Program-made: the position numbers and the translations under genes
Origin: Kiritimatiellia bacterium
GTDB taxonomy: Bacteria; Verrucomicrobiota; Kiritimatiellia; RFP12; DVOR01
DNA length: 64,000 nt
NCBI GenBank assembly: GCA_031552845.1
Contig: JAVBMC010000028.1
Location: 4,047-68,046 of the forward strand
Reading direction: 5' to 3'
In this document: piece by piece, positions 6,248 to 54,570 of the stretch
Layout of the letters: every line of letters starts with the position of its first letter
How positions within the stretch are numbered: position 1 is the stretch's first letter
The notes under the pieces: generated by a model
Database searches by the model: none
Told to the model about the DNA's origin: nothing
Seen by the model: only the letters and a program-made list of their open reading frames with translations

Positions 6248-6346
6248 GATCACACCTAGCTTCGGAGGTAGAGGTCACTTGACCTCAGAGTACGATCTGA
6301 CCTGACCTCAAAGTCAGAGGTCGCCTGACCTCAGGGTACGAGGTCA
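6248..6346. repeat. Degenerate tandem array, 23-bp period, palindromic core GAGGTCA-N2-TGACCTC
   Basis: TGACCTC at 6280, 6303, 6326; GAGGTC at 6271, 6317, 6340. Confidence 0.85.
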
Positions 6347-6573
6347 GGCGTGATGTGGGGCCGAGTCAAAATCCGCTTTGTTGTTGATGTGGGGTATTAC
6401 ACAGGGTTATTGGGTGATAAGGGGTTGTTTGGTGTTTTATTTGGATTGCGGTTGGGTTGTTCCGGCAATTTGCATGGATGGGGTTGGTGGTGTGAAAATG
6501 TTTGAGCGGGATGTTCTTGGGGAGGGGCGGAAATCTGTGGTGCAGGTCGCGGGCGGGTGGGGGTAGTTTGGGG

Positions 6574-6602
6574 TTGCTTTTGGGCGTGGGGTGTGGTAAA
6601 AT
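6574..6602 (+). promoter_or_regulatory. Putative sigma70 promoter of oxidoreductase 1
   Basis: TTGCTT-17 bp-TAAAAT with TG extension; GAGGAGG RBS before 6638. Confidence 0.55.
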
Positions 6603-6637
6603 GCGGGCAGTTTTTATAAATTAGAGGAGGTTGTGTC

Positions 6638-7996
6638 ATGTCTGGTTTTGAGTTAAACCGCCGTGAGTTTGTGGCGGCGGGCGGGGTGGCTACGGCTGCG
6701 GTGTTGGCGGGGTGTTCGACGTGTTCGGCTGCGGATTTGTATAAGCCGCCGGCTACCGTGAAGAAGGGGCAGTTGATTAAGGATCGCAAGATCAATATCG
6801 CTTGCGTGGGTATCGGGGGCATGGGCGCGGGCGATGCGGGCCATTGGACGAATGAGAATGTGGTGGCTTTGTGCGACGTGGATGATCGTAACGCGGGTAA
6901 GACGCGCGAGAAGTATCCGAATGCGCCGTACTTTAGGGACTATCGTGAGATGCTGGCGAAGCTGGGGGATCAGATTGATGCGGTGACGGTTTCGACGCCG
7001 GATCATATGCACTTCCCGATTGCTTTGGCGGCGATTCAGGCGGGCAAGCATGTGTATGTGCAGAAGCCGCTGACGCAGACGATTCATGAGGCGCGTGCGT
7101 TGCGCGAGGCTGCGCGGATTCATAATGTGAAGACGCAGATGGGTAACCAAGGTCACAGCAATGAGGGGACGCGGCTGTGTAAGGAGTGGATTGAGGCGGG
7201 GGTGATTGGCGATGTGACGCGTGTGGATATTTGGACGAACCGTCCGATTTGGCCGCAGAACTGTCAGTTGCCTACGGATACGCCGCCGGTACCGGAGGGC
7301 GTGGATTGGAATCTGTGGCTGGGCGTGGCTCCACAGCGTCCGTATAATGGTTGTTATATGCCGTTTAAGTGGCGCGGCTGGTGGGATTATGGCTGTGGCG
7401 CGATTGGCGATATGGGCTGTCATACGATGGATGCGGCGTTTTGGGCGTTGGATCTGGCGGCGCCGACTCGCGTGGAGTTGGTGGAGATTGACGGCGGGAC
7501 GGAGTGGTCGCCTGCGAAGGGTGCGATTGTGAAGTTCACGTTCCCGGCGCGCGGCAAGCTGCCGCCTTGCACGATGACGTGGTATGAGGGTTCGAAGAAG
7601 GCGCCGATGCCGCCGACGTTGGAGGCGGGACGTGACTTGGGTAACTCGGGCCAGCTGTTCTATGGTACGAAGGGTATCTTGCACGGCGGCGGCGATTATT
7701 GCAATAGTGTGCGTCTGATTCCGGAGTCTGCGATGGGTGAGTTTAAGAACAAGCCTGAGAAGACGTTGCCGCGCGTTGAACGGGGCGATCATTATAATAA
7801 CTGGCTGGATGCAATCCGCGGCAAGGTGGAGGAGGCGTGCTCGAACTTTGAGCATGCGGCGCCGTTGTCGGAGCTGGGATCGTTGGGTAATCTGGCGATC
7901 CGTTCGGGCAAGAGTTTTAATTGGGATGCGAAGGCGATGAAGGCTTCGGACCCGATTGCCCAGCAGTATGTGACGAAGGCGTACCGTAAGTTCTAA
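6638..7996 (+). CDS. Gfo/Idh/MocA NAD(P)-dependent oxidoreductase, predicted Tat lipoprotein
   Basis: NRREFV twin-Arg signal, LAGC lipobox, GIGGMG, TPDHMH, QKPLT, GDMGCH. Confidence 0.92.
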   Translation: MSGFELNRREFVAAGGVATAAVLAGCSTCSAADLYKPPATVKKGQLIKDRKINIACVGIGGMGAGDAGHWTNENVVALCDVDDRNAGKTREKYPNAPYFRDYREMLAKLGDQIDAVTVSTPDHMHFPIALAAIQAGKHVYVQKPLTQTIHEARALREAARIHNVKTQMGNQGHSNEGTRLCKEWIEAGVIGDVTRVDIWTNRPIWPQNCQLPTDTPPVPEGVDWNLWLGVAPQRPYNGCYMPFKWRGWWDYGCGAIGDMGCHTMDAAFWALDLAAPTRVELVEIDGGTEWSPAKGAIVKFTFPARGKLPPCTMTWYEGSKKAPMPPTLEAGRDLGNSGQLFYGTKGILHGGGDYCNSVRLIPESAMGEFKNKPEKTLPRVERGDHYNNWLDAIRGKVEEACSNFEHAAPLSELGSLGNLAIRSGKSFNWDAKAMKASDPIAQQYVTKAYRKF

Positions 7997-8019
7997 CGGA
8001 TTGCTTTGTAGTGCACGAG

Positions 8020-8053
8020 AGCCGGCCAGTTTCTGGCCGGCTTTTCCTTTTTT
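8020..8053 (+). terminator. Intrinsic terminator
   Basis: GCCGGCCAG-ttt-CTGGCCGGC followed by TTTTCCTTTTTT. Confidence 0.85.
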
Positions 8054-8155
8054 GTGGCACCCATGGGGGTGGTTTTGCGCAGGGTGGTTTAGCTCTCGGG
8101 GGAAGGGCTTGATTTGGCGGAAATATTCGTTTTGCAGGGGATTTTCTTTTTTGAG

Positions 8156-8184
8156 TTGCGTTGCATATCGCTTTATGGTACACT
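8156..8184 (+). promoter_or_regulatory. Putative sigma70 promoter of oxidoreductase 2
   Basis: TTGCGT-17 bp-TACACT with TG extension. Confidence 0.55.
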
Positions 8185-8220
8185 TTGGACGCGTTTGTCT
8201 TTCCTTTATGCGAGGGTAGT

Positions 8221-9582
8221 ATGTCCGATTTTGAACTAAGCCGCCGAAATTTTGTAGTTACCGCCGCCGTGGCTGCCGCTTCGGTGTCGATTGCTAATGA
8301 GAAAATTAAACCGTCCGCTGCGTCGGAAGCGCCGAAGGCGTTGAAAAAAGGCAAGCTGGTTAAGGGGCGCAAGATTAACATTGCCTGCGTGGGAGTTGGC
8401 GGCGTGGGTGAACGCGATGCGTTGCATTGGGAAGACGAGAATGTTGTGGCGCTGTGCGACGTTGATGAGCGCATGAGCACGAAAACGCGCGAACGTTATC
8501 CGGATGCGGAGTTCTATCAGGACTATCGGGAGATGTTTGCCAAGTGCGGGGATAAATTTGATGCGGTAACGATTGCGACGCCTGACCATATGCATTATCC
8601 GATTGCGTTGGCGGCGATTCAGATGGGCAAGCATGTGTTCATGCAGAAGCCGCTGGCGCAAACGGTGACGGAGATGCGAGCATTGGCCAAGATGGCGAAG
8701 CTGCATGATGTGAAAACGCAGATGTGCAATCAAGGGCACAGCAACGAAGGAACGCGGTTGTGCAAGGAGTGGATTACTGCGGGTTTGATTGGCGATGTGA
8801 CGCGTGTGGATGTTTGGACGAACCGTCCGGTGTGGCCGCAGAATTGTCAGCTGCCGGCCGATGTGCAGCAGGTGCCGGAGGGGTTGGATTGGAATTTGTG
8901 GCAGGGCGTTGCCGCGGAGCGGCCTTATAATGAGTGTTATCTGCCGCTGAAGTGGCGCGGCTGGTGGGACTACGGTTGTGGGGCGACGGGCGATGCGTGC
9001 GGGCATACGATGGATGCGATGTATTGGGCTTTGGAGCTGGGGGCGCCTTCACGTGTCGAGCTGACGGCGATTGAAGGCGGGACTGAATGGTCGGCGCCTG
9101 CGGGATTGAGTTTGAAGTACCACTTCCCCAAGCGCGGCGGTTTCCCGGCTTGCGTGGTCAATTGGTATGAAGGCACGAAGCGTCCGCCGCTGCCGCAGGG
9201 GTTGGGCGAGGGCGTAAAGCTTGATCCTGCCGGACAGCTGTTTTACGGCAGCAAGGGATTTTTGTATGCGGTGGGGGATTATTGCAATAGCGTGAGGCTG
9301 TTGCCCGATGCTTTCATGGAGTCTGTCAAGGATAAGCTGCCAGCCAAAACGTTGCCGCGCATTGAGCGGGGCGATCATTATAATAATTGGCTGGACGCCA
9401 TCCGTGGCAAAGTAGATGAAGCGTGTTCGCACTTCGGCTATTCCGCCGGATTGTCCGAGCTCGGCGCATTGGGCAGCATGGCCGCACGTGCCGGACGCAG
9501 CTTCGATTGGGATGCTGCACAGGCCAAGGCCTCAGACCCGTTGGCGCAGCGGTATGTGACCAAAACATACCGTGTGTTCTAG
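8221..9582 (+). CDS. Gfo/Idh/MocA oxidoreductase, Tat signal (paralog 2)
   Basis: SRRNFV signal, GVGGVG, TPDHMH, QKPLA; collinear with 6638-7996; start ATG 8221. Confidence 0.92.
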   Translation: MSDFELSRRNFVVTAAVAAASVSIANEKIKPSAASEAPKALKKGKLVKGRKINIACVGVGGVGERDALHWEDENVVALCDVDERMSTKTRERYPDAEFYQDYREMFAKCGDKFDAVTIATPDHMHYPIALAAIQMGKHVFMQKPLAQTVTEMRALAKMAKLHDVKTQMCNQGHSNEGTRLCKEWITAGLIGDVTRVDVWTNRPVWPQNCQLPADVQQVPEGLDWNLWQGVAAERPYNECYLPLKWRGWWDYGCGATGDACGHTMDAMYWALELGAPSRVELTAIEGGTEWSAPAGLSLKYHFPKRGGFPACVVNWYEGTKRPPLPQGLGEGVKLDPAGQLFYGSKGFLYAVGDYCNSVRLLPDAFMESVKDKLPAKTLPRIERGDHYNNWLDAIRGKVDEACSHFGYSAGLSELGALGSMAARAGRSFDWDAAQAKASDPLAQRYVTKTYRVF

Positions 9583-9700
9583 GAGCGCCGCTGCGGCGGA
9601 CGGTTGACGCTATCAAGCGCCGCAAAATCAGTTTAGGTGTAGGGCGTGGACATCGAGACGTCCTGATGGTTATTAGTATAAGAATTGAAAAGCAGTTATC

Positions 9701-11032
9701 ATGTCAGAAGCAGAATTAAATAACCGTGACATTGCGGCGGCGGCCACACCGGCAACAGTCAGCCGCAATGGACATTACGTGCCGCCGGAAATTGTACGGC
9801 AGGGCAGTTTAGTTATTGGCCGCAAGATCAATATTGCTTGTGTCGGCATTGGCGGTATGGGATTCAACGACGCCGCGCATTGGTCGGGCGAGAACATCGT
9901 CGCGCTGTGCGACGTCGATAACAGAGCCGCGCGCAAAACCCGCGAGCGCAACCCTACGGCGCAGTACTTCCGTGACTACCGGGAAATGCTGGCGAAGTAT
10001 GGAGATAAAATTGACGCGGTGACAGTCACCACGCCTGACCACACGCATTTCTCGATTGCTGTGGCGGTGCTGCAAGCCGGCAAACACCTTTATCTGCAGA
10101 AGCCGTTGACGTACTCTATTGAAGAATCACGCCTGCTGCTTGAGGCCGCCCGCGTGCATGGCGTCAAAACGCAGATGGGCAATCAAGCGCATAGCACTGA
10201 AGCGCCGCGCTTGTGCAAAGAATGGATCGCCGCCGGTGTGATTGGCGACGTCAAGCATATTGATGTTTGGACCGACCGCCCCGTCTGGCCGCAGAACTGC
10301 ATGCCGCCGTCAGCGGGACAGACGCTGCCGGGCGGCGTGGATTGGGAGTTGTGGCTGAACGTGGGGCCGGTGCGGCCCTATCACAGCTGTTATATGCCAT
10401 TCCGCTGGCGCGGCTGGTGGGAGTTCGGTACCGGTGCTTTAGGTGATATGGGCTGCCAGCTGCTCAATGACGCTTACTTCGCTTTGGATTTGAAGGCGCC
10501 TTCGCACGTCGAGCTCCTCGAGGCTGACGGCGGTAACGAACATGCGCCGCCGGCCGGCGCCAAGATCAAATACAGCTTTCCGCAGCGTGGTCACTTTGCG
10601 CCCTGTACGCTCACCTGGCACGAGGGCACGTGCAAGCCGCCGGTTCCGAAAGAACTCAGCGAAGACGGGCACCATATCTCCGCCAACGGAACTTTGTTCT
10701 ATGGCACCAAGGGCATTCTCTATTCAAGCGAGGGTGGCGTCGTGCGCCTGTTGCCCGATGCTGTTATGGCGACCTTCAAGAAGCGTCCGCCTAAATCACT
10801 GCCGCGCATCACCGGGAACGACCACTATTGGAATTGGCTTGAGGCCATCCGCGGCAACATTCCTGAGGCGTGCTCGAACTTTGAATATGCCGCACCGCTG
10901 AACGAACTGTGTGCGATCGGCAATCTCGCCATCCGTTCAGGCCGCAGCTTTGATTGGGACTCCGCGGCGATGCAAGCCTCTGACCCGCAAGCGCAGGCCT
11001 ACGTGCGGCGCAGCGTTTACCGCAAATTTTAA
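9701..11032 (+). CDS. Gfo/Idh/MocA oxidoreductase with degenerate signal peptide (paralog 3)
   Basis: GIGGMG, TPDHTH, QKPLT, GDMGCQ; N-terminus ELNNRDIA lacks RR. Confidence 0.92.
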   Translation: MSEAELNNRDIAAAATPATVSRNGHYVPPEIVRQGSLVIGRKINIACVGIGGMGFNDAAHWSGENIVALCDVDNRAARKTRERNPTAQYFRDYREMLAKYGDKIDAVTVTTPDHTHFSIAVAVLQAGKHLYLQKPLTYSIEESRLLLEAARVHGVKTQMGNQAHSTEAPRLCKEWIAAGVIGDVKHIDVWTDRPVWPQNCMPPSAGQTLPGGVDWELWLNVGPVRPYHSCYMPFRWRGWWEFGTGALGDMGCQLLNDAYFALDLKAPSHVELLEADGGNEHAPPAGAKIKYSFPQRGHFAPCTLTWHEGTCKPPVPKELSEDGHHISANGTLFYGTKGILYSSEGGVVRLLPDAVMATFKKRPPKSLPRITGNDHYWNWLEAIRGNIPEACSNFEYAAPLNELCAIGNLAIRSGRSFDWDSAAMQASDPQAQAYVRRSVYRKF

Positions 11033-11068
11033 AAGCCCTTCTGCCGCAGTGGAAAGGGCGGTGAAACT

Positions 11069-13047: not shown

Positions 13048-16000
13048 ATGTCTCAATATCGGCAGGTGACGCAATCTGTTTTCAGCAGAGTATTTTTGCT
13101 GTTGGGCCTTTGTTTTGCCTGGCAGACCATGGCGGCGGTGATTACGCCTCAGCAATCAAAGACAGCCGTCAGCAACTGGCTGCGTAAGGATGCCCGTCCG
13201 ATGGGTGCGGCATTTCGCGGCGTGGTGCGGGATGCACAGGTTTTTGCGGATGCCCAAGGCACGCCGCTTTTCAACTGCGTTAATCTCGAGAATGGCGGTT
13301 TCGTCATTACCTCAGCTGATGACGGCATCATGCCGATTGTGGCCTTCTCCGGCTCCGGCACGTTTGATGCCGATCCCCGCAATCCCTTGTGGACGCTCCT
13401 CAACCGCGACATGCCCAAGCGCGCCGCGCGGGTGCAACAAGGCGCCGGTGCTGCTTTAAAGATGATGGCTGCTTCAACTGCTCCGACGATGGCCGCGGAT
13501 GCGCCGCAACAGGCATGGGCTAAACTTCTGACAGCACCCGGTCCGGCGTTGAAGATGTCATCCGGTGGTGCGGCTCAAGAAACCATTAGCGACGTACGCG
13601 TCGCGCCGTTGGTCCAAGCGCGTTGGAATCAGGCTGAGGCTGGCGGGCAGAACGTGTTCAACTACTACACGCCTAACAATTACGTCTGTGGTTGTGTTGC
13701 TACGGCGACCGCGCAAATCATGCATTATCACCGCTATCCGACCGCATCGGTCACTCCGGTGCTGGAACGTAAGTGTTCCGTGGATAGAGTGCTGACGCCG
13801 CTCTCGATGCTCGGCGGCGTGTATGACTGGGATAACATGCCGGCGGAGCCCGACTGGGATACCACCGAAACAGAGGCGGAGGCTATTGGCAAGTTGACGT
13901 TCGACCTCGGTGTTGCATTTTACGCTGATTATACGGATTTTGAAACAGGGGCCTATTCTTATTTTGTCGGCAAAGAACTCCAAGCAACATTCGGCTATGC
14001 GTCAGCACGATACATTACGCGTTACAACGAGAGCGCCGGAGTACTTCCATTCGTGGCCGATGCCGTATTGTCGAATCTGGATGCCGGTTATCCTGTGGAG
14101 TTTGGCATACAGGGATCATCCGGCGGCCACGCGATTGTCGGTGATGGTTACGGGTATCAAGAGGGCTTGCTTTACGTCCATCTGAATATGGGCTGGGGCG
14201 GGGTGGAAGATATGTGGTATAACCTGCCAACTGTTGAAGGTCGTTTCTCCTTTTCTGTCGTAGATGACATTGTTTACAACATCTTTCCGGATGCTACGGG
14301 CGAAATCATCAGCGGGCGCGTTTTAACTAACGGTGTTCCGGTTGCAGGCGCGACGGTCATTCCCCGGCAGGCGGGCGCTGCTACCGATTTGCCTGCGGTG
14401 CAAACCAACGACAAAGGCATTTATTGGTTCAGGGTGCCTTCTCCAAACTCCGGCACGGTCAATTATGACATTCAGGTGATTGCGGAAGAGGGAGCGTTCA
14501 CCGGCCTTCAGACCGTTGGCGTCACCAAGAGCATTTCCACCGAAATGGATTATGATGAAGATGAACAGATTCTTTGGTACTCCTTCCCGGTCGGCAGCGT
14601 TGGCAATCGCTGGGGCGTTGATATCACTCTTGAGAGAACCGTCGAATTAGCCGAAGCGCTGGGCACGACCGGTTTGATTTGGATTACCGGCGGCAGTGCG
14701 CCATGGTTTGGGCAGAGCGTCAAAACCGCAGATGGCGTGAGTGCTGCGCAAAGCGGCGAGGTTCCTGTTGGCGAAAACTCTTGGCTGCAGACCACGGTCA
14801 CCGGTCCCGGCACATTGATTTTCAAATGGAGTCTGGATAGCAAGGTCAGTGGTGATAAAGTTGATTTTACCGTTGATGGCAGCCGCAAAAAAGTCGTGTC
14901 CGTCACCACACCTTGGACAACCATCACCAACACAATAGGCGAAGGTGTGCACACTTTGCGTTGGACATTTATACGCGGCGTTGACTCTCCTCCCCCTTCC
15001 GTTGCCGCCTGGCTGGATCAGGTCGTTTGGCGTTCCACGCTGCTGGTTGATGTCACGTTTGATTATCAGGACGGCATCACGCTGCCCACCCGGCAGTCTC
15101 TCCAAGCCGGTTTAGCCTACGGCACGCTGCCCGCGCCTAAACGTACGGGATATGTGTTTGAAGGCTGGTATACCGATCCGACTGCCGGTGTTCAAGTTAC
15201 AGCCGCTTCAACGGTGCCGACTGCTGCGCTCACGCTCTACGCCCGTTGGTCAGTTGAACCGGTGCTGATTCTTATCACCTTTAATCCCAACAGCGGTAAA
15301 GTCTCCCCAACAAGCAAGTCGTTTGAGGTGAACGTCCCTTTTGGCGAACTGCCGGTGCCCACGCGCGCCGGCTACGTGTTTGACGGCTGGTTCAGCGCAC
15401 AAAGCGGTGGCAGTGAAATCACCGCTGATGATTTAGTGCCCGAGGTCAAAACCACGCTCTACGCCCAATGGATCAAGGCATATACGCTCACGGTTAAAAA
15501 TGGAGCCGCATCCGAATCGGCACTCTTCCCCGAAGCTCTTGCGGATATCACGGCTGATGCTGCGCCAGCCAATCAAGAGTTCCAAAAGTGGACCCTCTCG
15601 CCCGCCTCGGTTACTTTTGCGGCTGGATTCAGCGCAACGGATGCTTCAACTCGGATTGTCATGCCTGCTGCAAATGTCACGCTGACGGCAGTGTATATCA
15701 AAGCCGCAGGTTCGCTGGGAGTTGAGTGGGTATCGAACATCCCTGGCAAGACTGTCGATGGCGTGCAATGGTCAACCGATAAAAAGACATGGTATAACGC
15801 TGATGAAATCCAGCGTCTGACATCCGGCACGTACACCCTTTCGCTCCGTTCGACGAACGGCCAATGGCTCCTGCCTGCATCAGTAAAGGTTACGCTGAAC
15901 GCAGGGCCGGCTGATTCGCCGACTCTGGCGTCGGTGGCCTGCGAATACGCCCCCGCGTTTAACCCCGATACGCTTGCGGGACTTGGCGGTGCTGAGCCGA

Positions 16001-17430
16001 CCGATGCTTCCGGCACATGGGATGCCGCAGCGCAGCAGATGAGTTGGGATGGTTTATATGTCGGCCTGCGTGCCAAGCTCGGGCCGTTGCCGTTGAGCGA
16101 CAACGCCCCTGCGGTCAAGCTCGCCAGCGGCAAGCTGCCTACGGGACTTGCGCTGACGGTGGTGGATGGGGCTTATTACATTGCAGGGATTCCCTCCAAG
16201 GCGGGTGTTTGCGCGGGCGTGCTGCAGGCGATCAATGGCAAAAAGAACGGCGAGCGCATCGCCGCCGCATGGAACGTGGCTGATCTGCCTGCGGAATACG
16301 TGGGCACCTTCAACGGCGTTTATACCGCGACGACTAATGACGTCACCAGCCACAGCGCCTTGACGCTGACCGTTGCCAAGACCGGCAAGCTCACAGGCTC
16401 GGTTAACCTCGGCGGTAAAAAATACACGCTCAAAGCCGATGCGTTTGACGCGGTTGATCACGCCACCGGCGCGATGACGCTCACCAATGGCGCCCTCATC
16501 TGCACCAGCCCCAAACTCACCCATGCAGTGGCTTTGACCATCAGCTTGAGCGGTGCCGGGTTGGGAGTCTTTAGCGTAGCGAATGCTCTTGATGGTGATG
16601 CTGATTTCTTTGCCGGCCAAGCTGTCCGCAACGGCTGGAGCGATAAGACTGTCACTGCACAAAAAGAACTGCGCACCAACGCGCTCGCTTGGACAAAGGG
16701 CTACTACACGCTCGCGCTCGCACCGGAGGTGGATGGTTCTTATGGCGCGGGCTACGTCACCCTCACGGTCGATGCCAAGGGAGCGGTCAAAGCCGCAGGC
16801 AAACTTGCCGACGGCACCTCTGCCAGCGGCAGCGGGGTGCTGCTCGTGACCGATGCCGATGTCTCGACAGTCATCGCCCTTGCGCCCAGCGCGTATAAGG
16901 GAGGGGAGTTCTACCTCAACGTCAGATTCATTCAAGATGCAGGCGGCACTCGCATTGAAACTGTGGAAGACGCCAGCTGGGTCAACCGTGTACTCACAAG
17001 CACCTCGGACGGACCCTTTGAACGTGCGCCGATTGTGCAAGGTGGCTGGTACAGCCCGCTGGCCAACCTGCGTGCGGTTTATGCCAACGCCATTGACAGC
17101 GTTCACCTGCAAGCCGACCGGATCGAGCAAGATGTTGAAGTCTTCTTTAACGCCAAAGGCACAGGCGTCGATGCCCTGCCCAAAGGCAACGCCCACAGCG
17201 TCAAGCTCACCCTTACTCCCAAGACGGGACTCTTCAGCGGCAGCTTCAACGAGACGGGGGTCAAAACCGCCTACAAACTCTACGGCGTACTCACCCCCTA
17301 CTTAACTGATAGCGACAACACCGCCGGACTCGGCTACTACAGCATCCCTGTGGCAGGTCCGCCCAAAACGCAAGTCTCGGAACTCTTCCGCCTCCTGACG
17401 GAAGCCCCGGAACCTGTAGAACAACCTTAA
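13048..17430 (+). CDS. Secreted C10-family (streptopain-like) cysteine protease with InlB B-repeats and large C-terminal region
   Basis: Signal peptide; Spi-like prodomain GGFVITSADD; catalytic CGCVATA and GGHAIVGDGY..H.NMGWGG; two LP.P.R.GY.F.GW..LYA.W repeats. Confidence 0.88.
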   Translation: MSQYRQVTQSVFSRVFLLLGLCFAWQTMAAVITPQQSKTAVSNWLRKDARPMGAAFRGVVRDAQVFADAQGTPLFNCVNLENGGFVITSADDGIMPIVAFSGSGTFDADPRNPLWTLLNRDMPKRAARVQQGAGAALKMMAASTAPTMAADAPQQAWAKLLTAPGPALKMSSGGAAQETISDVRVAPLVQARWNQAEAGGQNVFNYYTPNNYVCGCVATATAQIMHYHRYPTASVTPVLERKCSVDRVLTPLSMLGGVYDWDNMPAEPDWDTTETEAEAIGKLTFDLGVAFYADYTDFETGAYSYFVGKELQATFGYASARYITRYNESAGVLPFVADAVLSNLDAGYPVEFGIQGSSGGHAIVGDGYGYQEGLLYVHLNMGWGGVEDMWYNLPTVEGRFSFSVVDDIVYNIFPDATGEIISGRVLTNGVPVAGATVIPRQAGAATDLPAVQTNDKGIYWFRVPSPNSGTVNYDIQVIAEEGAFTGLQTVGVTKSISTEMDYDEDEQILWYSFPVGSVGNRWGVDITLERTVELAEALGTTGLIWITGGSAPWFGQSVKTADGVSAAQSGEVPVGENSWLQTTVTGPGTLIFKWSLDSKVSGDKVDFTVDGSRKKVVSVTTPWTTITNTIGEGVHTLRWTFIRGVDSPPPSVAAWLDQVVWRSTLLVDVTFDYQDGITLPTRQSLQAGLAYGTLPAPKRTGYVFEGWYTDPTAGVQVTAASTVPTAALTLYARWSVEPVLILITFNPNSGKVSPTSKSFEVNVPFGELPVPTRAGYVFDGWFSAQSGGSEITADDLVPEVKTTLYAQWIKAYTLTVKNGAASESALFPEALADITADAAPANQEFQKWTLSPASVTFAAGFSATDASTRIVMPAANVTLTAVYIKAAGSLGVEWVSNIPGKTVDGVQWSTDKKTWYNADEIQRLTSGTYTLSLRSTNGQWLLPASVKVTLNAGPADSPTLASVACEYAPAFNPDTLAGLGGAEPTDASGTWDAAAQQMSWDGLYVGLRAKLGPLPLSDNAPAVKLASGKLPTGLALTVVDGAYYIAGIPSKAGVCAGVLQAINGKKNGERIAAAWNVADLPAEYVGTFNGVYTATTNDVTSHSALTLTVAKTGKLTGSVNLGGKKYTLKADAFDAVDHATGAMTLTNGALICTSPKLTHAVALTISLSGAGLGVFSVANALDGDADFFAGQAVRNGWSDKTVTAQKELRTNALAWTKGYYTLALAPEVDGSYGAGYVTLTVDAKGAVKAAGKLADGTSASGSGVLLVTDADVSTVIALAPSAYKGGEFYLNVRFIQDAGGTRIETVEDASWVNRVLTSTSDGPFERAPIVQGGWYSPLANLRAVYANAIDSVHLQADRIEQDVEVFFNAKGTGVDALPKGNAHSVKLTLTPKTGLFSGSFNETGVKTAYKLYGVLTPYLTDSDNTAGLGYYSIPVAGPPKTQVSELFRLLTEAPEPVEQP

Positions 17431-17466
17431 ATATTTCTTCTGCGTACGCTGCTAAACGGTTCAATT

Positions 17467-17517
17467 TGTGCCAGTCTTGTGAAATAGAAGTTTCACTAGG
17501 CTGGCGCATTTGTTTCT
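17467..17517. terminator. Long hairpin between convergent genes, likely terminator
   Basis: GTGCCAGTCTTGTGAAA-tagaag-TTTCACTAGGCTGGCGC then ATTTGTTTCT. Confidence 0.55.
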
Positions 17518-17530
17518 CTAGAGTGACATA

Positions 17531-17621
17531 TTTGCGTTAAACGTTTGACGCAAACTTGGCAAACATTGGATCCTGCGTTGGCAAACGTTGAAAACCTACT
17601 TGCCAAACGTTTGGCACAAAA
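17531..17621. repeat. Degenerate tandem array, 22-bp period, core TTGGCAAACGTTTG
   Basis: AAAC(G/A)TT at 17539, 17561, 17583, 17605; perfect palindrome TGCCAAACGTTTGGCA at 17601-17616. Confidence 0.85.
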
Positions 17622-17691
17622 TCCCCCTTTACATCATGCCGGATTTTTACGTGCGGCGCGCTTGGCGCGGTGCCACAGGCACATTCATGCC

Positions 17692-19497
17692 CTACCTTTG
17701 GGGAGTAGGGCGGGCTGGCACTTCACACAAGCGCGGTAGATGAACGTAGGTGACGCGTCCGTCGGAGTGGCGACGGAAGGCTTCGATGGTGGTGTTCTTG
17801 CGGACGAAGCGGAGGTCTTCAAAGCAGGTGTCGCCATCGGCATCGGTTTCGATAACCTGCCAGTCAGCATCAAGCGGATAGGTGCGGGTGGTGATTTGGT
17901 TGTGGTGGTCGGTGATGAGGATGAGGCGTTTGTCACGGTAGATGTTGATGGTGAGGCGTACGCCGTCTAAGGGGTCGATGTCGCATGCGGTGACGGCGCA
18001 GGTGAGGGCGGGGTCTTCCGGATCGAAGCGGTAGTGATTGGGCGGGGTAACGCAAGTCTGGCGGGCGGTGGTTTTCTTTTTGAATGGGAAGGTGAGATCA
18101 AGTAGAGATTTGGCAAGTTCATTTGTTTCGGCAGCTTTGTAGAATGGGAGCAAGGCCATCGGAACAAAGGGCTTGCCCGGTGAGGCCAGAAATACCTCGT
18201 TGCGATCGTTTATGGAGCTGATGCTGATGACGTTGGTGCCGTGATCGATGCTGTGTCGGAAAGAGTAGTTGATTTCTTTGGCGGCATGGATGTTGTAGGA
18301 GTAACAGCAACTGCCACTCGTATATTGCATGACATCGGCAATACGCTTATCTTCTCGGATAAGAACGGAGTGGCGCGGAGGCGTGGAGGCGGTTTTGTAG
18401 AGTTTGCGATGGTTGGGGTTGGTTACCAGAAACACTTCAAATAGCGCTGGTTCCGTTGGGGTATAGGTGTGAGTCACGTAACGTAAATTGTTGCTGACGG
18501 TTATGCTTGTTTGTGCCGGAGTCTCGAGGAAGGAGAGGCGTATGCGTTCCGCATCAGTCGGGATAATGAGGGGATGGTATTGAGCTTCAATGAAGTTGTT
18601 GTTGCTTTGGATGAGGGGGCGGAAGCATTCAATGTCGGGCTCATGCGTCAAAGTATCGAGTGCTGCGAGTTGTTCGAACGAGATACGCTTGAGGATTCGT
18701 TGCATGGCGTTAGCGACGTCAATGGGAGTGAGTTTACGGGTTGTGTCCGTGTGATAGGCGGCAAAGCAGTTGGTGCCGTTGTAGAGGGTAATAAGAGTAT
18801 CACACGAGTCGCCGTAAATCCTAAATTGATAGGGCGGCATGTTGTAGGCGGTGACTTCTAGCTTGTGTGTTTCGTTGGTGGCTGGCATCGCAATCGTGCT
18901 GTTGACGACAATGCCATCTTTGACAATTTGGATGATGCTGTTGCGGCTAATATCCGTAGCACCTGTGATGCGGTGTGCTGTATAATTTGTACAACCGGCG
19001 AAGACGCTATGGTTGAGTGTGATGTTGCCGATCGTATTGGTTTCAATTATCTGCAGAAACTTGGTGCGGAAATCCCATAGCCGGACTTGAGAGTCTTCAT
19101 AAGAAAGAACGGCGGGATAAACGGCCTCCCATGAAGAGAAGGATGACGGAGTTGTGTAAACATCTTGCAGGATGTCACCGCGGCGGATGACAATCGTGCC
19201 GGGCATGAGGTGCTTGGCAGCGTTGAATTTATCATCGCGTTTTTGCCAGTTTTCCTCAGTATCCCAAGGAGCTGTCATATACTCCTCCCATGCGGTGGCG
19301 GTTGTATAGGTGAGGGTGTAGTCGCCGAGTGTGAATGTACGGATAGTCTCACGATTGTTGGTTTGGGTGGTGAGATAGTCACCCGATTTATTCACCCATC
19401 CGATGTATGTTCCGTAAAGGTAGACGCTGCCGATGAAGACACTGAGAATAACGGCGAGGGCTAAGAGCGTGAACAAACAACCTTTGACGTACTTCAT
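17692..19497 (-). CDS. Hypothetical membrane-anchored protein (601 aa)
   Basis: N-terminal TM helix; AAGGA RBS 3 bp after upstream stop; C-terminal ETDADGD domain shared with neighbour. Confidence 0.75.
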   Translation of the reverse strand: MKYVKGCLFTLLALAVILSVFIGSVYLYGTYIGWVNKSGDYLTTQTNNRETIRTFTLGDYTLTYTTATAWEEYMTAPWDTEENWQKRDDKFNAAKHLMPGTIVIRRGDILQDVYTTPSSFSSWEAVYPAVLSYEDSQVRLWDFRTKFLQIIETNTIGNITLNHSVFAGCTNYTAHRITGATDISRNSIIQIVKDGIVVNSTIAMPATNETHKLEVTAYNMPPYQFRIYGDSCDTLITLYNGTNCFAAYHTDTTRKLTPIDVANAMQRILKRISFEQLAALDTLTHEPDIECFRPLIQSNNNFIEAQYHPLIIPTDAERIRLSFLETPAQTSITVSNNLRYVTHTYTPTEPALFEVFLVTNPNHRKLYKTASTPPRHSVLIREDKRIADVMQYTSGSCCYSYNIHAAKEINYSFRHSIDHGTNVISISSINDRNEVFLASPGKPFVPMALLPFYKAAETNELAKSLLDLTFPFKKKTTARQTCVTPPNHYRFDPEDPALTCAVTACDIDPLDGVRLTINIYRDKRLILITDHHNQITTRTYPLDADWQVIETDADGDTCFEDLRFVRKNTTIEAFRRHSDGRVTYVHLPRLCEVPARPTPQR

Positions 19498-19500
19498 GAG

Positions 19501-21171
19501 TTATTCCTTTGTCGGATAGAGGTCGGTGGGGACTAAGCTATAGTTGGGGCGGCGGGTGTAGGTTTGGAGGGGCTGGCCGTTGTGGCGGATGGTGATGGTT
19601 TCGTAGTGGTGGTCGCCATCGGCATCGGTTTCTTGGTAGGTGTAGCCGTCGGGGAAGCTGTAGGTGTGAGTGGTGGAGGTGCCGTCAGTGGTGGTTTGGA
19701 TGGTGAGGTTTTTGTCGTGGTGGTTGATGTTGGTTTGGTTGGAGGTTTTACTGTAACAGCAGATGTCTTCTCTTTCAAAGTCATAGGGATGCGGAAGAAG
19801 TTTTGCAAAGCGGCCGATGTATGGGGAACGGCGGTAGGTGAGGGTAGTTTTTGCTTGGTGGGTGGTGTTATCGATGATAATGTCCTCGACAATGTCTGGG
19901 CCTTGTCTGCCGTGAGGGATATGAGTGAAGGAGAGGTATGTGGTGGTGTTAGTATTGTTGTGGTTGGGGATGGTAGTGAAGCTGGTGTCGAGGATTTGGG
20001 TGTTGTTTTTGTGGAGGATGATGTGGGGGATCTTTACAATGGAGAGAAACATTGCTTTGAAGAAAATCTCTTTGTAGTGGGGGTTGTCGGCAGAGGTGCA
20101 GACGGTGATGCTGGTGTCTTGATCACGCGCGATGAGTTCTTGTTGAAGGATGTTGGTGATGGCGCGATAGGGGACGAAGGCGGAGGTGTCCGGGAGCAGG
20201 GGAGGCGAGGCGTTGTCTGAGTCGTCGAGGAAGGGGTCTTTGTCGGAGGAGAATGAACTCTCGATTATGGCTTGGACGTAGGTGTAGTCGTTGGCGGGGA
20301 GGGCTTGGGCGAGGTGTTGAATTGTGCCGACGGCTTGGTGTTTGCCGAGAAAGGGGTGGAGGATGGGGTGTTGGAGTGTGAGTTGAAGAGGGGTGATTTG
20401 TCCGTCGGGTTGGATTGCGTAGTAGCGTTTAATGGTGTTGGGGAGGTTGCGGTTTTCACGAAGCCAGTTGAATAACGTAAGACTGTAGGTGTCGTCGTCA
20501 GCGGGTCGCGGGGGGAGGGGTTTGTATTGGGTGTAGGTGATGAAGGTGTCGGGGACCCAGTCCCGGTTGCTGTCGACGGCGGTGAGGATGGTGTCGTCGA
20601 GGAAGTAGCAAGCGTAGCGTTTGCCGTAGCGGGTATGGGCTGTGGCGAAGATGAGGGTGTTGGAACGCCAGAGGTGGGTGTAGGTTTCGCGGCTGTAGGT
20701 ACGGAAAATGGTGGTGCGGATTTCGCGTAGGGTGGGATCTCTGGAGGGGATGAGTTGGACGTGGACGAGGTGGTTGCTGTAGAGGGTTTGGGGCGGGGTG
20801 TCGGCACGCTGAGGACGGAGAAGTGTGGTGTTGCCGTAGCTGTCTTGTTCAAAACTTGCGAGGAGGATGTTGTCACGCACGAGCGTGATTTCGTCAAAGA
20901 GGCCGTCAACGCCATGAAGGTTGTCGGACATGGTGATCACATAATCGTTCAGCATGAAGGTGTGGACGGTGGAACGCCCTGTTTGGGCGGTATTGATGTG
21001 AAGCTGGTCTTCCGCAAAGAATGCACGCAAGGGGGCGTGTGAATTGCCGGTCAGACATGCGGGAAGGGCGATGCAGTATTCATAACAGACGAATCCGCCA
21101 CGGAGTAATCCGGCGAGCAGGAGGAGCGAGGCAACAGTCCAAAGGCAGCGCTTGAGGGACGGTTTCTTCAT
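19501..21171 (-). CDS. Hypothetical membrane-anchored protein, paralog of 17692-19497
   Basis: Likely start ATG 21171 (MKKPSLKRCLW + hydrophobic helix); T.HTF.L.DY and ETDADGD shared with neighbour. Confidence 0.75.
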   Translation of the reverse strand: MKKPSLKRCLWTVASLLLLAGLLRGGFVCYEYCIALPACLTGNSHAPLRAFFAEDQLHINTAQTGRSTVHTFMLNDYVITMSDNLHGVDGLFDEITLVRDNILLASFEQDSYGNTTLLRPQRADTPPQTLYSNHLVHVQLIPSRDPTLREIRTTIFRTYSRETYTHLWRSNTLIFATAHTRYGKRYACYFLDDTILTAVDSNRDWVPDTFITYTQYKPLPPRPADDDTYSLTLFNWLRENRNLPNTIKRYYAIQPDGQITPLQLTLQHPILHPFLGKHQAVGTIQHLAQALPANDYTYVQAIIESSFSSDKDPFLDDSDNASPPLLPDTSAFVPYRAITNILQQELIARDQDTSITVCTSADNPHYKEIFFKAMFLSIVKIPHIILHKNNTQILDTSFTTIPNHNNTNTTTYLSFTHIPHGRQGPDIVEDIIIDNTTHQAKTTLTYRRSPYIGRFAKLLPHPYDFEREDICCYSKTSNQTNINHHDKNLTIQTTTDGTSTTHTYSFPDGYTYQETDADGDHHYETITIRHNGQPLQTYTRRPNYSLVPTDLYPTKE

Positions 21172-21398
21172 GGTGTATTTTCTTGTGTTGCAGATGACGA
21201 GGGGTAGGAAAGTGGCGCTGTGCGATGGGGGAGGAGCAGGACAATTGCGGCGGCGATGAGGGAGAGGATGAGCAGTCCAACGGCGATGCTTTTGCGCCAT
21301 GGGTAGGGAATACGTGAGGCGATGTAGGAGAAGGGGGAGATTATCGCCATGAGGACGTAGAGGTAAAAGTAGTGATAGTTATAGGGCGGAAGGCGCAT
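21168..21398 (-). CDS. Small hypothetical membrane protein (76 aa, 2 hydrophobic segments)
   Basis: Stop overlaps next ATG (ATGA coupling at 21168-21171); two hydrophobic stretches. Confidence 0.5.
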   Translation of the reverse strand: MRLPPYNYHYFYLYVLMAIISPFSYIASRIPYPWRKSIAVGLLILSLIAAAIVLLLPHRTAPLSYPSSSATQENTP

Positions 21399-21510: not shown

Positions 21511-21620
21511 GGTACTAGGTGGAGACGAGGTTGGGAAGCAGGTGGTACCAGGGTCGGGTACTTAGTGGTACCGGAGTTGGGTACTTAGAAGTACCGGGGT
21601 GTGGTACTTGGAGGTGGCAA
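21511..21620. repeat. Degenerate tandem array, 23-bp period, core GGTACTT-AG-AAGTACC
   Basis: GGTACT at 21511, 21557, 21580, 21603; degenerate unit at 21534. Confidence 0.85.
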
Positions 21621-21654
21621 CGGCAGCAAAATAAGAAAAAAAGCGATGAAATAA

Positions 21655-29214: not shown

Positions 29215-29287
29215 TTTTGGCGCGAAACGGGTGGCTGGATGCGGAAAGAGCGTGTTCTGTTTCTTATTTCGGACATTTATGCAGTGC

Positions 29288-29397
29288 CGTGATTACGGGC
29301 ATAGTTGGCCACGATCACGGGCGTGATCGCGCGTGGTTACGAACGTAGTTGTGCAAGATTATACGCGTAATCGCGGAGGATTCTTGGCGGAGGCTAT
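29288..29397. repeat. Degenerate tandem array, 22-bp period, core GATYACG-N2-CGTRATC
   Basis: In-phase units at 29291, 29313, 29335, 29357, 29379; CGATCACG-gg-CGTGATCG at 29312-29329. Confidence 0.75.
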
Positions 29398-41790: not shown

Positions 41791-42091
41791 AACGCAACCC
41801 GCAAAACAGTACGATCAAGGGTGCGAAACAGTACGCTGATGGATTCGTTTTAGTACGTTTGTGTATTGGGTTTAGTACGATCAAACGTTTATGCGTACTG
41901 TTCCGCGGGTGTGAACGTACTGTTTCACGGGTTCGTGCGTACTGTCACGCGGGTTCGTCACAAATGTTTCACGGGTGTGAAAGTACTGTTGTGCGGGCGT
42001 GGAAGAATTGTCACACGGGTGTGTGCGTACTGTGACACGGGTGGCAAACAAATGTGACACGGGTGTGTGAGAGTTGTGACACGGGGGGCAC
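41791..42091. repeat. Bipartite 22-bp-period array: 4 left units and 9 right units, mirror-symmetric about 41886
   Basis: Right units start every 22 bp from 41894 to 42070, all with TGT-N4-CGGG; left AGTACG at 41808, 41830, 41852, 41874; centre AGTACGatcAAACGTTTatgCGTACT. Confidence 0.9.
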
Positions 42092-42481
42092 GTGGAGGTT
42101 TAAAACGGGAGAATGCTTTAATTCATCCGTTTTACGGAATATTTCTTGGGCGGAAAGCGGTCAGGCTGACGTTGTATTTTGAGTGTCTTTTCCGGAGTGA
42201 TTTGCAATGCGGGCATACGCGTCTAACCCCCACCAATTGGGCGCGAAATGCGTATTTGGGGTGTTGGTAAATGTAGATGTTGACGTGCGTTGCATGGGGT
42301 GCAGTTTAGCAGATTTTGCGGCAAAGTCAAGCCGAAGTTGAAGGAAAGTTATTTGGGGTGGCGGTTGGTTTTGTGGAGGTGGATTTGGTGAGTTGGGTGG
42401 AGATGAGGAGGAGAGAAGCGGTAAATGGAGCGTTTATAGGCGGGTTTTTGTGAAGTATTTGTTTTGGCACATTTATCTGGG

Positions 42482-48373: not shown

Positions 48374-48380
48374 GAGCCGT

Positions 48381-48989: not shown

Positions 48990-49005
48990 GTGGGTTCCTC
49001 CGGAG

Positions 49006-50759: not shown

Positions 50760-50766
50760 AATACGA

Positions 50767-52170: not shown

Positions 52171-52664
52171 AGATACACTAAGCTCAACACGGCTTTAAGC
52201 GGCCATTATACCATTTCTCCATCTTCCCATACAACCCAAAACCCCCTTCTATCAGCAAACTTCTCAGTTTTCTGACAAAATGATGCAGGCGCGGATATTT
52301 TCCCGCACAACGTGGTGATGCCTTGCGGGCAGTAGGCGAGACGGAGGTGGGGAGGTGGCGGTTTTAAAGGAGCTCTTGGAGGGGATGAGGAGCTTTTAAT
52401 GGAGGAGGGCGTCTTGCTTGTTCCTGATAGGGCATATCCGTTGGGGCTTTCGGGGCGAAAAGGTGTTTGCGTAGACCGGTATGCGTGGCCGAAGTTTGAA
52501 AATGTAAAAATTAGCACTCGACATTTTGTACGGTTATGCTATACTGAAGCTTCCATTGTTTTCGTTTATGGTAGCCATGGCGTGCTTGGGGAACGTGTCA
52601 GTTTTCGGGGGTGCGCCGGCATGGGGTCAACGGATACGTCTCAAAGCTTATGAATACAAATATA

Positions 52665-54263
52665 ATGAATACTTCCGCGTGGAAGGATGTGAAGGATCAT
52701 CTCGTTAACAAGAACCTGCGCGAGCTTTTCGATGAGGATCCTAAACGCGCCGAGCGTTTCCTGCTGAAGGCGGCGGGCTGGCGGTTGGATTATTCGAAGA
52801 ATCTGATTGATCAAGATCTCATGAACAAGTTGGTGGCGTTGGCTTATCGCGCCGATGTGAAGTCTTGGATTCAGAAGATGTTCGAGGGCGAGAAGATCAA
52901 CGTGACCGAAGATCGCGCTGTGTTGCATACGGCTTTGCGTAATCGTTCCGATGAACCTGTTTTTGTCGACGGACAGGATGTGATGCCGGAGATCAAGGCC
53001 GTGCTGGCGAAGATGAGCGCTTTCGCAACACGCGTGCGGGCAGGGGAGTGGATCGGGTTTACCGGGAAGCCGATCCGCCACATCGTGAACATCGGCATCG
53101 GGGGTTCGGACTTGGGACCTTTGATGGCGTATCAAGCGCTGCGTCCTTATGGCAAGCGGCATATAAAGTGTCATTTTGTTTCCAATGTGGATGGTACGCA
53201 TCTGGCCGAAGTGCTGCGCGAGGTGAAGGCCGACCGCACGTTGTTTGTTGTGGCCTCCAAAACGTTCACCACGCAGGAGACGATGGCGAATGCGTTGAGC
53301 GCCCGTGCTTGGCTGGTAGACGAGCTGGGTGACGAGAAGGCTGTCGCGAAACATTTTGTGGCGGTCTCGACGAACGCGGAGGAAGTCAGCAAGTTCGGCA
53401 TTGATACAGCGAACATGTTTGAGTTTTGGGATTGGGTTGGCGGACGTTATTCGTTGCCGAGTGCAATCGGATTGTCGCTGATGTGTTATATCGGTCCGCG
53501 CAGCTTCGAGCGTTTGCTGGAGGGTTATCATCAGATGGACCGCCACTTCCGCACGGCGGCGTTGAACTCGAACATGCCGGTGATTCTTGCGCTGTTGGGC
53601 ATTCTTTATAACAATGTTTACGAAGCCGAGAGTTATGCCGTGCTGCCGTATGATCAATACCTCGCACGCTTCCCGGCCTATTTGCAGCAGCTGGATATGG
53701 AGAGCAACGGCAAGAGCGCCACGCGTGACGGCACCCCGGTCCGTCATTCGACCGGGCCGATTGTCTGGGGTGAACCCGGCACCAACGGCCAGCATGCGTT
53801 CTATCAGCTGATTCACCAAGGCACCAAGATGATTCCCGCCGACTTCATCGGCTTCTGCCAGTCGCACAACGCGCTGGCCGGGCATCATGACAAGCTGATG
53901 GCAAACTTCTTTGCGCAAACGCAGGCTCTTGCTTTCGGCAAGACTGCCGCCGAGTGCCGCCAAGAAGGCGTGCCGGAAGAACTCGTCGTGCACAAGACGT
54001 TCAGCGGCAACCGCCCCACGAACACCCTTATGGCGAAAAAGCTCACGCCCGAAACCCTTGGCTCGCTCATCGCGCTTTATGAGCACAAGGTCTTTGTGCA
54101 AGGGATTATCTGGAACGTGTTCTCCTTCGACCAATGGGGCGTGCAGTTGGGCAAAGTCTTGGCCTCCAAGATACTGCCGCAGCTGGAAGACGATTCCAAG
54201 CCGTTGGCGCACGATGCCTCCACCAACTCCCTGATCGCCTACTACCGCTCTTACAGCAAGTAA
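52665..54263 (+). CDS. pgi: Glucose-6-phosphate isomerase
   Basis: [47 protein letters not shown]; start ATG 52650 or 52665. Confidence 0.98.
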
Positions 54264-54311
54264 GCACGGGAACAAAGCGACGCCGCGAACAACTGTTCAC
54301 GCGGCATACTC

Positions 54312-54346
54312 AAAAGCCCCGCAACACTGCGGGGCTTTTTCTTTTT
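54312..54346 (+). terminator. Intrinsic terminator of pgi
   Basis: AAAAGCCCCGCA-acac-TGCGGGGCTTTTT. Confidence 0.9.
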
Positions 54347-54460
54347 CAGCGATCGGCGCAGTGACAAGACAAACATTAATGCCTTTCAGCATGCTCCACC
54401 ATGCCCGCGTGCTGTATCCCACGCATGTGCGTACAGATACCGCAACAGTCGCTTCAAAGA

Positions 54461-54570
54461 ACCAACACGGCCATATTTGAAGAAAAACACTCAAGTGATT
54501 CTGAAAAAACACTTAAGTGTTTTTGTAAAAACATCCGAGTGTTTTTCAAGAAACATTCATATGTTTTTTC
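54461..54570. repeat. Degenerate tandem array, 22-bp period, core AAAAACACTTAAGTGTTTTT
   Basis: Units at 54461, 54483, 54505, 54527, 54549; perfect 20-bp palindrome at 54505-54524. Confidence 0.9.

Follow-up and report, generated by a model that had tools for sequence, protein, structure and literature searches.

The window analyzed here is a 64,000-nucleotide stretch of a Kiritimatiellia bacterium, corresponding to C37:4047-68046 of the genome we refer to as G000 (2.98 Mb in 83 contigs, ∼55% G+C, 93% complete and 85% coding, with 2094 genes called from open reading frames, ORFs). It is ordinary chromosome, carrying purA, uppS, cdsA, dxr, pgi, tsf, type II secretion system (T2SS) genes and three GFO/IDH/MocA paralogs, and the closest match to its PurA is 74% identical. 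Among these genes lie six tandem arrays of 22 or 23 bp units, all of which are found in the sequence where a first-pass annotation had placed them, and all of which, as it had said, sit between genes. An Rfam scan finds no family that matches the arrays, a tRNA being its sole match. One DNA run, possibly the source, contains the stretch, and two RNA runs from the same study contain almost none of its words. The six arrays are as follows.

6245..6350, array 1: period 23, 4-5 units GAGGTCA-NN-TGACCTC; an orphan copy (one with no gene cassette beside it) from a family of 10 loci.
17443..17646, array element 2: core at 17531-17625, period 22, units around GGCAAACGTTTGCC.
21511..21626, array 3: period 23, units GGTACC-N6-GGGTACTT; a small family of 2-3 loci.
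29286..29376, array 4: period 22, 3-4 degenerate units GAT(T/C)ACG-NN-CGT(A/G)ATC.
41791..42101, array 5: period 22 with a 44-bp super-period, ∼13 units TGT(C/G)ACACGGGTGTG; a family of 17 loci.
54461..54581, array 6: period 22, ∼5 units AAAAACAC-N4-GTGTTTTT, between pgi and a convergent tRNA-Arg gene.

Tandem Repeats Finder (TRF), with a score of at least 30 in the window, recovers four of the six (6271-6346 and 21542-21609 with period 23; 41830-42085, in three rows, and 54483-54533 with period 22) and makes no period-22 call for the arrays at 17531 and 29288, both of which are shorter and more degenerate. An autocorrelation (lag) test detects the second of these at 29287-29376, and the 17531 array falls under the threshold of both methods. 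The dyad symmetry noted for the units stands, the arrays having a median score of 3.9 compared with 1.1 for random 110-bp segments, and it extends to the sixth unit type (TGT-N4-CGGG, array 5), which is also a partial palindrome (TCACAC-GG-GTGTGA).

The periodicity is genuine and strict, and it characterizes G000. That periods 22 and 23 occur beyond chance was borne out genome-wide, where they and their multiples dominate tandem self-similarity, with neighboring periods and shuffled sequences giving nearly nothing. TRF reports 100 rows of period 22 and 70 of period 23, compared with 5, 25 and 5 rows for periods 20, 21 and 24, and there are a further 38 and 9 rows at 44 and 46. The lag test, which requires at least 31 self-matches out of 44, yields 63 and 47 clusters at lags 22 and 23, 72 and 37 at lags 44 and 46, and 58 and 31 at lags 66 and 69; off-period lags of 20, 21, 24 and 25 yield 0, 7, 5 and 1, and shuffling within 200-bp blocks leaves 0-1 clusters at each lag. 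No peak is seen in 1.31 Mb drawn from 80 loci of other genomes, in which TRF reports 5 and 2 rows of periods 22 and 23, and the orthologous purA neighborhoods of 80 other genomes contain no comparable arrays.

Merging the lag matches gives a catalogue of 167 arrays in G000 with a median length of 109 bp, of which 161 are intergenic (less than 30% overlap with the gene calls); the period is 22 in 99 arrays and 23 in 68. When unbroken runs of in-phase units that match the array consensus at 60% identity or better are counted, there are four units in 70 arrays, five in 38, three in 29 and six in 15, with a maximum of 10. Eighty-five arrays lie between co-directional genes, 46 between divergent and 17 between convergent genes, and 13 at a contig edge, divergent regions being mildly enriched relative to gaps of at least 150 bp. 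With 161 arrays and 550 gaps of at least 200 bp, nearly one third of the long intergenic gaps hold this class of element, an abundance that bears on annotation, on promoter and terminator prediction, and on the assembly of such genomes.

Among the six window arrays a shared period does go with unrelated sequence, as first described, but this does not hold genome-wide, where unit types recur in families. The recurring types include GGGCTTGCAAGCCC, AGTAACGTTACT, TGACAGC-NNNN-GCTGTCA, TGTCACACGGGTGTG, GAGGTCA-NN-TGACCTC, GATTACG-NN-CGTAATC and CGAGTGA-N3-TCACTCG. Strict patterns place window types 1, 4 and 5 at 10, 7 and 17 loci respectively (the degenerate window copy of array 4 itself fails its pattern), and there is at least one near-copy of type 2 at another place in the genome. 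In the GGGCTTGCAAGCCC family a five-unit row, ordered strong-weak-strong-weak-strong, is common to the 15 loci, except that one locus has four clear units and one degenerate unit, and many copies also share linkers and a weakly conserved flanking unit. Other families carry end sequences of their own, with family-specific flanks and ends that resemble terminal inverted repeats (TIRs). Because unit order, linkers and flanks are common to distant loci, the arrays are best described as whole elements copied to dispersed loci. For family 1, the pattern GGCTTGCAAGCC-N10-GGCTT has 137 matches in G000 compared with 7 for a reversed control; in 30 related genomes its counts are at control level, and the families are therefore not conserved between genera. 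The arrays thus described are a lineage-specific class of dispersed intergenic elements.

The arrays are also associated with a particular gene family. In an all-versus-all comparison of the 2094 called proteins of G000, the largest paralog family consists of 37 proteins of ∼240 aa with an HU-HIG domain (PF18291, for HU-type dimerization and DNA binding) and DUF4469 (PF14734, immunoglobulin (Ig)-like). In 27 of these 37 genes an array is the next neighbor, 19-195 bp past the 3′ end, and in none of them does it lie on the 5′ side. Since 14.8% of the 2094 called genes adjoin an array, the binomial P for this family is 2.8e-15; in each of the other 11 large paralog families only 0-5 members do so. 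Inspection by eye shows a periodic row downstream of ∼30 of the 32 full-length HU-HIG genes that have enough flank, and C-terminal fragments of HU-HIG genes stand beside nine further arrays, with the gene-then-array order kept in all nine. PF14734 is above cut-off in all ten proteins tested; PF18291 is above it in five, below it in three and absent at E ≤ 0.01 in two, and the match to TIGR01201 is no more than weak. Profile searching matches PDB 4fmr_A (E = 2.4e-13) and then HU and IHF chains. An AlphaFold model (mean predicted local distance difference test score, pLDDT, of 90) has 4FMR (BVU_2165) chains as its top four Foldseek matches with E ∼2e-14 and template modeling (TM) scores of only 0.42-0.43, such that the domain arrangement differs or is uncertain. 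Further Foldseek matches are to HU/IHF and then, weakly, to DNA-bound Rel-homology Ig domains, and PHROGs gives a weak, generic 'DNA binding protein' match in two of five proteins.

Comparison of five close paralogs defines the cassette in which these genes reside. Homology starts just upstream of a sigma-70-like promoter (TTGACT-N17-TAAACT), takes in a conserved leader of ∼270 nt and then the gene, and stops at a rho-independent terminator, and the array begins 20-60 bp after the terminator T-tract. There are 89 leader-like stretches in all (some being two pieces of one leader), 55 with an array no more than 1600 bp downstream and two with one upstream. The HU-HIG gene, array and next gene are co-directional in 20 of 25 cases, which equals the genome background of ∼79%. 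About 125 of the 167 arrays are orphans with no adjacent cassette, and 123 of these have genes on both sides.

All six window arrays are orphan rows, and there is no HU-HIG cassette or leader-like stretch inside the window. Array 1, with its TIR-like ends (GATCACACCT ... AGGCGTGATG), has a family member at C49:30854-30971 that sits just past the terminator of an HU-HIG gene, and it resembles the array after HU-HIG gene C49:31039-31965, including the ...AGGCGTGAT end. Array element 2, which also has a conserved left flank and a right tail (GGCACAAAATCCCC), is ∼85% identical over ∼170 bp to an element after HU-HIG gene C39:46151-46894; the alignment spans left flank, units and tail, and the C39 element begins ∼25 bp past the terminator of the gene. 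Array 4, flanked by a NIF3-like gene and T2SS gene F, has a family copy (C24:81018-81111) that comes after an HU-HIG gene. Array 5 begins ∼30 bp past the terminator of a ThuA-like gene. For arrays 3 and 6 no cassette-linked copy was found in the genome; array 3 lies between the divergent genes for a 599-aa ORF (minus strand) and purA, and the exact motif of array 6 occurs in array form only at this locus, with related A/T-rich palindrome arrays elsewhere in the genome.

A second type of cassette has the HU-HIG promoter, a shorter leader, a small hydrophobic ORF whose peptide starts MFTLFAIAITLAV..., and a terminator, followed directly by a TGTCACACGGGTGTG array (window type 5); eight of the 17 type 5 loci follow such a small-ORF cassette. 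A small hydrophobic peptide with a long structured leader recalls the type I toxins. The loci in G000 are:

Second cassette: C4:50050-50950, C63:27280-28200, C62:780-1900, C3:37600-38600, C73:15950-16750, C43:16400-17350, C4:38450-39330.

The genes downstream of the HU-linked arrays are heterogeneous. Among 20 such proteins scanned, three have BspA-type leucine-rich repeats and three have the Listeria-Bacteroides repeat (two carry both), two are GntR/LacI-type and five have no match, and the remainder include N6 DNA methylase, Fic, EF-G, Rnf, MoxR and tetratricopeptide repeat proteins. No regulon logic is apparent among them. Sequence flanking one or two of the HU-HIG genes is matched over ∼110-150 bp at the ends of many contigs of G000 (for example C24:1-141, C71:1-147, C14:1-151, C49:106869-107017 and C48:37908-38046), which points to a multi-copy element, apparently of the insertion sequence type, that breaks the assembly. 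At one HU-HIG gene (C55:785-1567) an apparent transposase-like reading frame takes the place of the expected array.

The linkage of HU-HIG genes to arrays is also found outside G000. Among 31 genomes, DUF4469 is above cut-off in G000 (42 matches) and G005 (one), and in a sample of the phylum it is present in five of 401 genomes, with expansion only in G000; none of 151 Bacteroidota genomes gives a match, a phylum sample that is uninformative. HU-HIG matches extend more widely, with six in G004, one to five in genomes of genus g4 and one weak match in G001. At ten of 20 HU-HIG loci from relatives a 22/23 array lies upstream of the frame. In G004, a genome of the same family but a different genus, five of the six HU-HIG genes have a 22/23 array right against the promoter (for the sixth, the contig supplies only 98 bp of upstream sequence), and five further upstream arrays are in G003, G011 and G012. 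Over 200 kb of G004 the lag test peaks at 22, 23, 44 and 46, and there are seven genuine arrays with motifs of their own, an eighth detected interval (in L105) being a run of N that was not counted. One array type is common to two G004 paralogs and another to three, the array directly adjoins either the −35 element or a conserved tail immediately ahead of the start codon, and the orphan arrays are of the same two types with the same tail. Two G004 HU-HIG proteins have sub-threshold matches to DUF4469, suggesting that the two-domain architecture is probably the same. In 200 kb of G001, with its one weak HU-HIG match, there is no array and only lag multiples of three.

Two distant genomes, each with a single DUF4469 gene, present what may be the simplest form of the association. 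In G459 a period-23 row of ACAACC-NNN-GGTTGT lies just downstream of the gene, in G529 a period-22 row of AAGTGCTAGCACTT lies ∼100-170 bp upstream, and neither motif is found elsewhere in its own genome above the reversed-pattern control. One gene with one adjacent row looks like the basic unit, of which G000 has multiplied both parts. Downstream of the HU-HIG genes of genus g4 and relatives (L138, L140, L145, L146 and L148-L151) comes a conserved mini-ORF about 25 codons long, e.g. M(D/E)NP(L/I)(I/L)...LL(G/R)GLL..LLG, with its own Shine-Dalgarno-like GGAGG, and these genes have no 22/23 array upstream. A scan of metagenomes with an 8-sequence alignment gave 139 pattern matches, none of which was confirmed. 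We found no paper on DUF4469 in the literature searched, nor a relevant one on Kiritimatiellae tandem repeats; what is added here is the genome-wide count of the arrays, their grouping into families, the cassette, and the linkage to genes with its recurrence in other genera.

The period and symmetry of the arrays, their families and dispersal, and the linkage of gene and array in several genera are matters of direct observation. The HU/IHF superfamily binds bent and structured DNA, and among the explanations first raised was a structure-reading protein that polymerizes every two helical turns. That idea gains real but indirect support from the tie between arrays and HU/IHF-superfamily genes (27 of 37 in G000, ten of 20 loci in relatives and two of three single-copy genomes); the protein may read either structure or sequence. 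We lean, with a little over even confidence, towards the reading that the arrays are docking rows for HU-HIG/DUF4469 dimers, with predicted binding, which have spread in the manner of MITEs (miniature transposable elements with inverted repeats). Among solved structures the closest relative is 4FMR, a homodimer according to the account of its family drawn on here (PMC5499826), and dyad-symmetric units fit a homodimer. One HU-HIG homodimer would occupy each palindromic unit, and the two-turn phasing would give each dimer almost the same helical face as the next, allowing mutual contact, such that a row of ∼110 bp could become one cooperative nucleoprotein block. The ancestral unit would have been one gene with one adjacent array, as in the single-copy genomes; in G000 the gene family would have grown to ∼40 copies, and the array parts would have multiplied further as MITE-like copies with family-specific ends, leaving the intergenic DNA with ∼125 orphan rows, the six window arrays among them. 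Where transcription units begin or end, the orphan rows most plausibly work as boundaries, roadblocks or architectural sites. Binding to the rows, its cooperativity and the function of the rows are inferred.

Relationships between the proteins and their arrays can be followed among the paralogs of G000. Protein identity correlates with the sharing of downstream 9-mers (none of 2000 permutations reaches the observed value), as is expected from co-duplication. Close paralogs with unrelated arrays have the same period in 14 of 17 pairs, compared with 46% of distant pairs, the pairs not being independent. The variable residues of close paralogs are scattered and form no obvious specificity patch.

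A number of observations weigh against docking by HU-HIG/DUF4469 dimers. Paralogs that are 73-90% identical in protein carry quite different arrays, and only 44% of pairs at least 80% identical share eight or more downstream 9-mers; near-identical paralogs with different arrays argue against a simple one-protein-one-motif specificity. The period maps only weakly onto the protein tree, with 6 changes compared with 8.4 in shuffles, and 110 of 2000 shuffles are as low. The largest family (type 5) is tied to the small-ORF cassette, such that the linkage is in part to the promoter-leader-terminator cassette and not to the protein. In G000 the arrays come after the terminator, where an operator would be unexpected. 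Beyond G000, the single DUF4469 gene of G319 is followed by a 7-bp repeat and no 22/23 array; this is a near-perfect heptamer repeat (L182, C73, ∼1857-1960 in gene orientation) of TCACCAC/TCACTCT with lags of 21 and 28. G004 has six HU-HIG genes, yet seven arrays in 200 kb alone, and no DUF4469 match at cut-off. Finally, Burroughs et al. contend on the basis of 4FMR that narrowing of the HU clasp by the Ig domain makes DNA binding unlikely, and judge HU-HIG proteins unlikely to be sequence-specific factors, in the portion of their paper drawn on here (PMC5499826).

The Bacteroidetes HU-HIG proteins are described in that portion (Burroughs et al. 2017, PMC5499826) as subject to rampant lineage-specific expansion and fast divergence, with no conserved operon partner. 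The Kiritimatiellae proteins of G000 resemble them in having the same two domains (HU-HIG and Ig-like DUF4469), a 4FMR-like fold, expansion, fast divergence, and the lack of a conserved operon partner, but whereas no DNA partner is given in that portion for the Bacteroidetes proteins (PMC5499826), the G000 genes have a phased array as neighbor. Few DNA-binding-like families in gut Bacteroidota have expanded as much or evolve as fast as the HU-HIG proteins, and a conserved non-coding neighbor with strict two-turn geometry, present with unrelated sequences in several genera, makes their function testable at the bench with a protein and its own array. Tentatively, and with doubt outweighing confidence, we raise the possibility that HU-HIG/DUF4469 proteins and 22/23-bp rows form a previously unrecognized two-part system, in which Ig-assisted HU dimers would nucleate on a row and build a block of fixed geometry, protein and site would diversify together and multiply both as cassettes and as array-only copies, and the rows might serve as programmable boundary or insulator marks, or as self/non-self marks in a conflict system. 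If so, the puzzling expansions of HU-HIG proteins in gut Bacteroidota would gain a DNA partner, and minisatellites of 23 nt of the BrickBuilt type could be the same thing; rows that are boundary or roadblock elements would be a new bacterial way to partition transcription units.

BrickBuilt is also the precedent for the alternative that survives best, which we nonetheless consider unlikely: that the arrays are purely selfish, MITE-like minisatellites spread by some transposition or recombination route, the HU-HIG proteins do not bind them, and the linkage reflects co-duplication or a preference for insertion past strong terminators. As set out in the parts of Klein et al. (2015, PMC4596501) used here, BrickBuilt of P. 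gingivalis is a 23-nt tandem repeat at 19 intergenic loci, with a leader and tail, TIRs, target-site duplications and promoter activity. The first-pass comparison with it is apt for period and dispersal (PMC4596501), and its contrast of one BrickBuilt consensus with none in common here is true only across families and not within them. The likeness, by description and not by sequence, lies in spacer-free 23-nt tandem units at many dispersed intergenic loci, a family-specific leader and tail, and variable unit number (PMC4596501); G000 correspondingly has head-to-tail 22-23-nt units, intergenic in 161 of 167 arrays; its families also show flanks of their own and TIR-like ends. The differences, as far as these parts of the paper go, are that BrickBuilt is one family with one consensus, compared with at least about 20 families in G000, that it has 1-22.8 units, compared with mostly 4-5, and that it is not described as dyad-symmetric, in contrast to the strong symmetry of G000 units (PMC4596501). 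Nor is a link to HU-HIG reported there, one of 19 loci lying beside a PF00216 gene in Table 1 (PMC4596501). Besides this precedent, the selfish alternative gains from the conserved flanks, TIR-like ends and fixed unit order over 7-17 loci, from the absence of a cassette beside ∼125 of 167 arrays, from near-identical genes with differing arrays, and from the small-ORF cassette, which carries arrays too. It does not account for the single-gene genomes, where a single adjacent 22/23 palindrome array with no dispersed copies resembles a functional gene-site pair, nor for a period that stays at 22 or 23 over unrelated sequences and genera, and no transposase is tied to the arrays.

Palindromic units could also act as RNA or single-stranded DNA, as tandem hairpins that serve as mRNA stabilizers, back-up terminators, or sites for a hairpin-reading enzyme, much as in repetitive extragenic palindromic sequences (REPs) and bacterial interspersed mosaic elements (BIMEs). 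We find this quite improbable. Many arrays do lie directly after terminators, and arrays 1, 3 and 6 fold better than shuffles as single strands (z = −4.7, −3.0 and −3.9), but arrays 5, 4 and 2 fold about like shuffles (z = −0.9, −1.75 and −2.0). With z ranging from −0.9 to −4.7 hairpins are not the common property of the arrays, a spread that favors recognition of duplex DNA without proving it. Hairpins do not need a strict 22/23-bp period, no Rfam family matches, and 46 of the 123 two-sided orphan arrays lie between divergent genes with no 3′ end near. REP/BIME units are short palindromes mobilized by REP-associated tyrosine transposases (RAYTs), and G000 resembles such genomes in having several families of clustered short palindromic units, intergenic and in hundreds per genome. 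It differs in its strict period and inconsistent hairpin stability, and its units are not in alternating Y/Z orientation with variable linkers. A search for RAYT (PF01797) in G000 gave only a single match, of 25.4 bits, within a 1352-aa frame; because no RAYT is present in a 93%-complete genome, membership in REP/BIME is excluded and we rejected the idea of RAYT-driven REPs.

A set of operators for many conventional transcription factors, one per sequence family, is more improbable again. The units do resemble ordinary 14-16-bp dimer operators, 111 of the 123 two-sided orphans are in intergenic regions that contain a gene start (the other 12, between convergent genes, are close to the 13% background for gaps of at least 150 bp, which speaks against operators), and two GntR/LacI-type regulators lie downstream of HU-linked arrays. 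Against this, there is no conventional regulator gene beside any of the six window arrays, the flanking genes are functionally incoherent, linkers and flanks are conserved between copies, and unrelated factor families would not all set a 22/23-bp period with 4-5 units. Least credible is an origin in which each locus produced its array in place, by slippage or template switching and without descent shared between loci, the generation of ∼11-bp inverted or direct duplications first put forward for these arrays: units are homogenized within an array and edge units are more eroded than inner ones, but distant copies share unit order, linker sequence and flanks, as in the alignment of array 2 with both of its flanks to a distant locus, and replication errors would not pick exactly 22/23 bp or dyad symmetry in every family, such that this origin is contradicted for families 1, 2, 4 and 5 and could survive only for singletons such as array 6.

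Two other kinds of phased repeat are worth comparing. Partition centromeres, such as sopC of F, downstream of sopB, and parC of R1, upstream of parMR, are tandem arrays directly beside the gene of a dimeric DNA-binding protein, with unrelated sequences in different replicons, and the HU-HIG genes, whose products are candidate binders, resemble them in this arrangement. The differences are that there is no ParA, ParM or TubZ among the 20 downstream neighbors scanned (upstream neighbors were not scanned), and that G000 has ∼167 chromosomal arrays with a period of 22/23 bp, as opposed to 43 or 11, and another protein family. Plasmid iterons of the 22-bp class are direct repeats beside a rep gene and origin, bound by Rep initiators, and share with the arrays the ∼22-bp phasing of repeated sites, 4-7 per row. 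The units of G000 are instead inverted repeats in ∼167 rows, and no Rep is found among 28 window proteins or 20 cassette neighbors.

Some other features of the window lie close to its arrays. Array element 2 lies ∼15 bp beyond the end of the gene at 13048-17430, whose 1460-aa product carries Spi inhibitor, Peptidase_C10 and Listeria-Bacteroides repeat domains; C10 peptidase genes also adjoin BrickBuilt loci of P. gingivalis in Table 1 of the source (PMC4596501), which is possibly a coincidence. Between array element 2 and array 3, at 17692-21300 on the minus strand, are adjacent ORFs of 601 and 599 aa with no Pfam match, which fall in the most extreme GC skew of the window (+0.36 to +0.49 on the plus strand) and have a very C-rich coding strand. 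Directly downstream of array 1, at 6638-11032, are the three GFO/IDH/MocA oxidoreductase paralogs, which are arranged in tandem.

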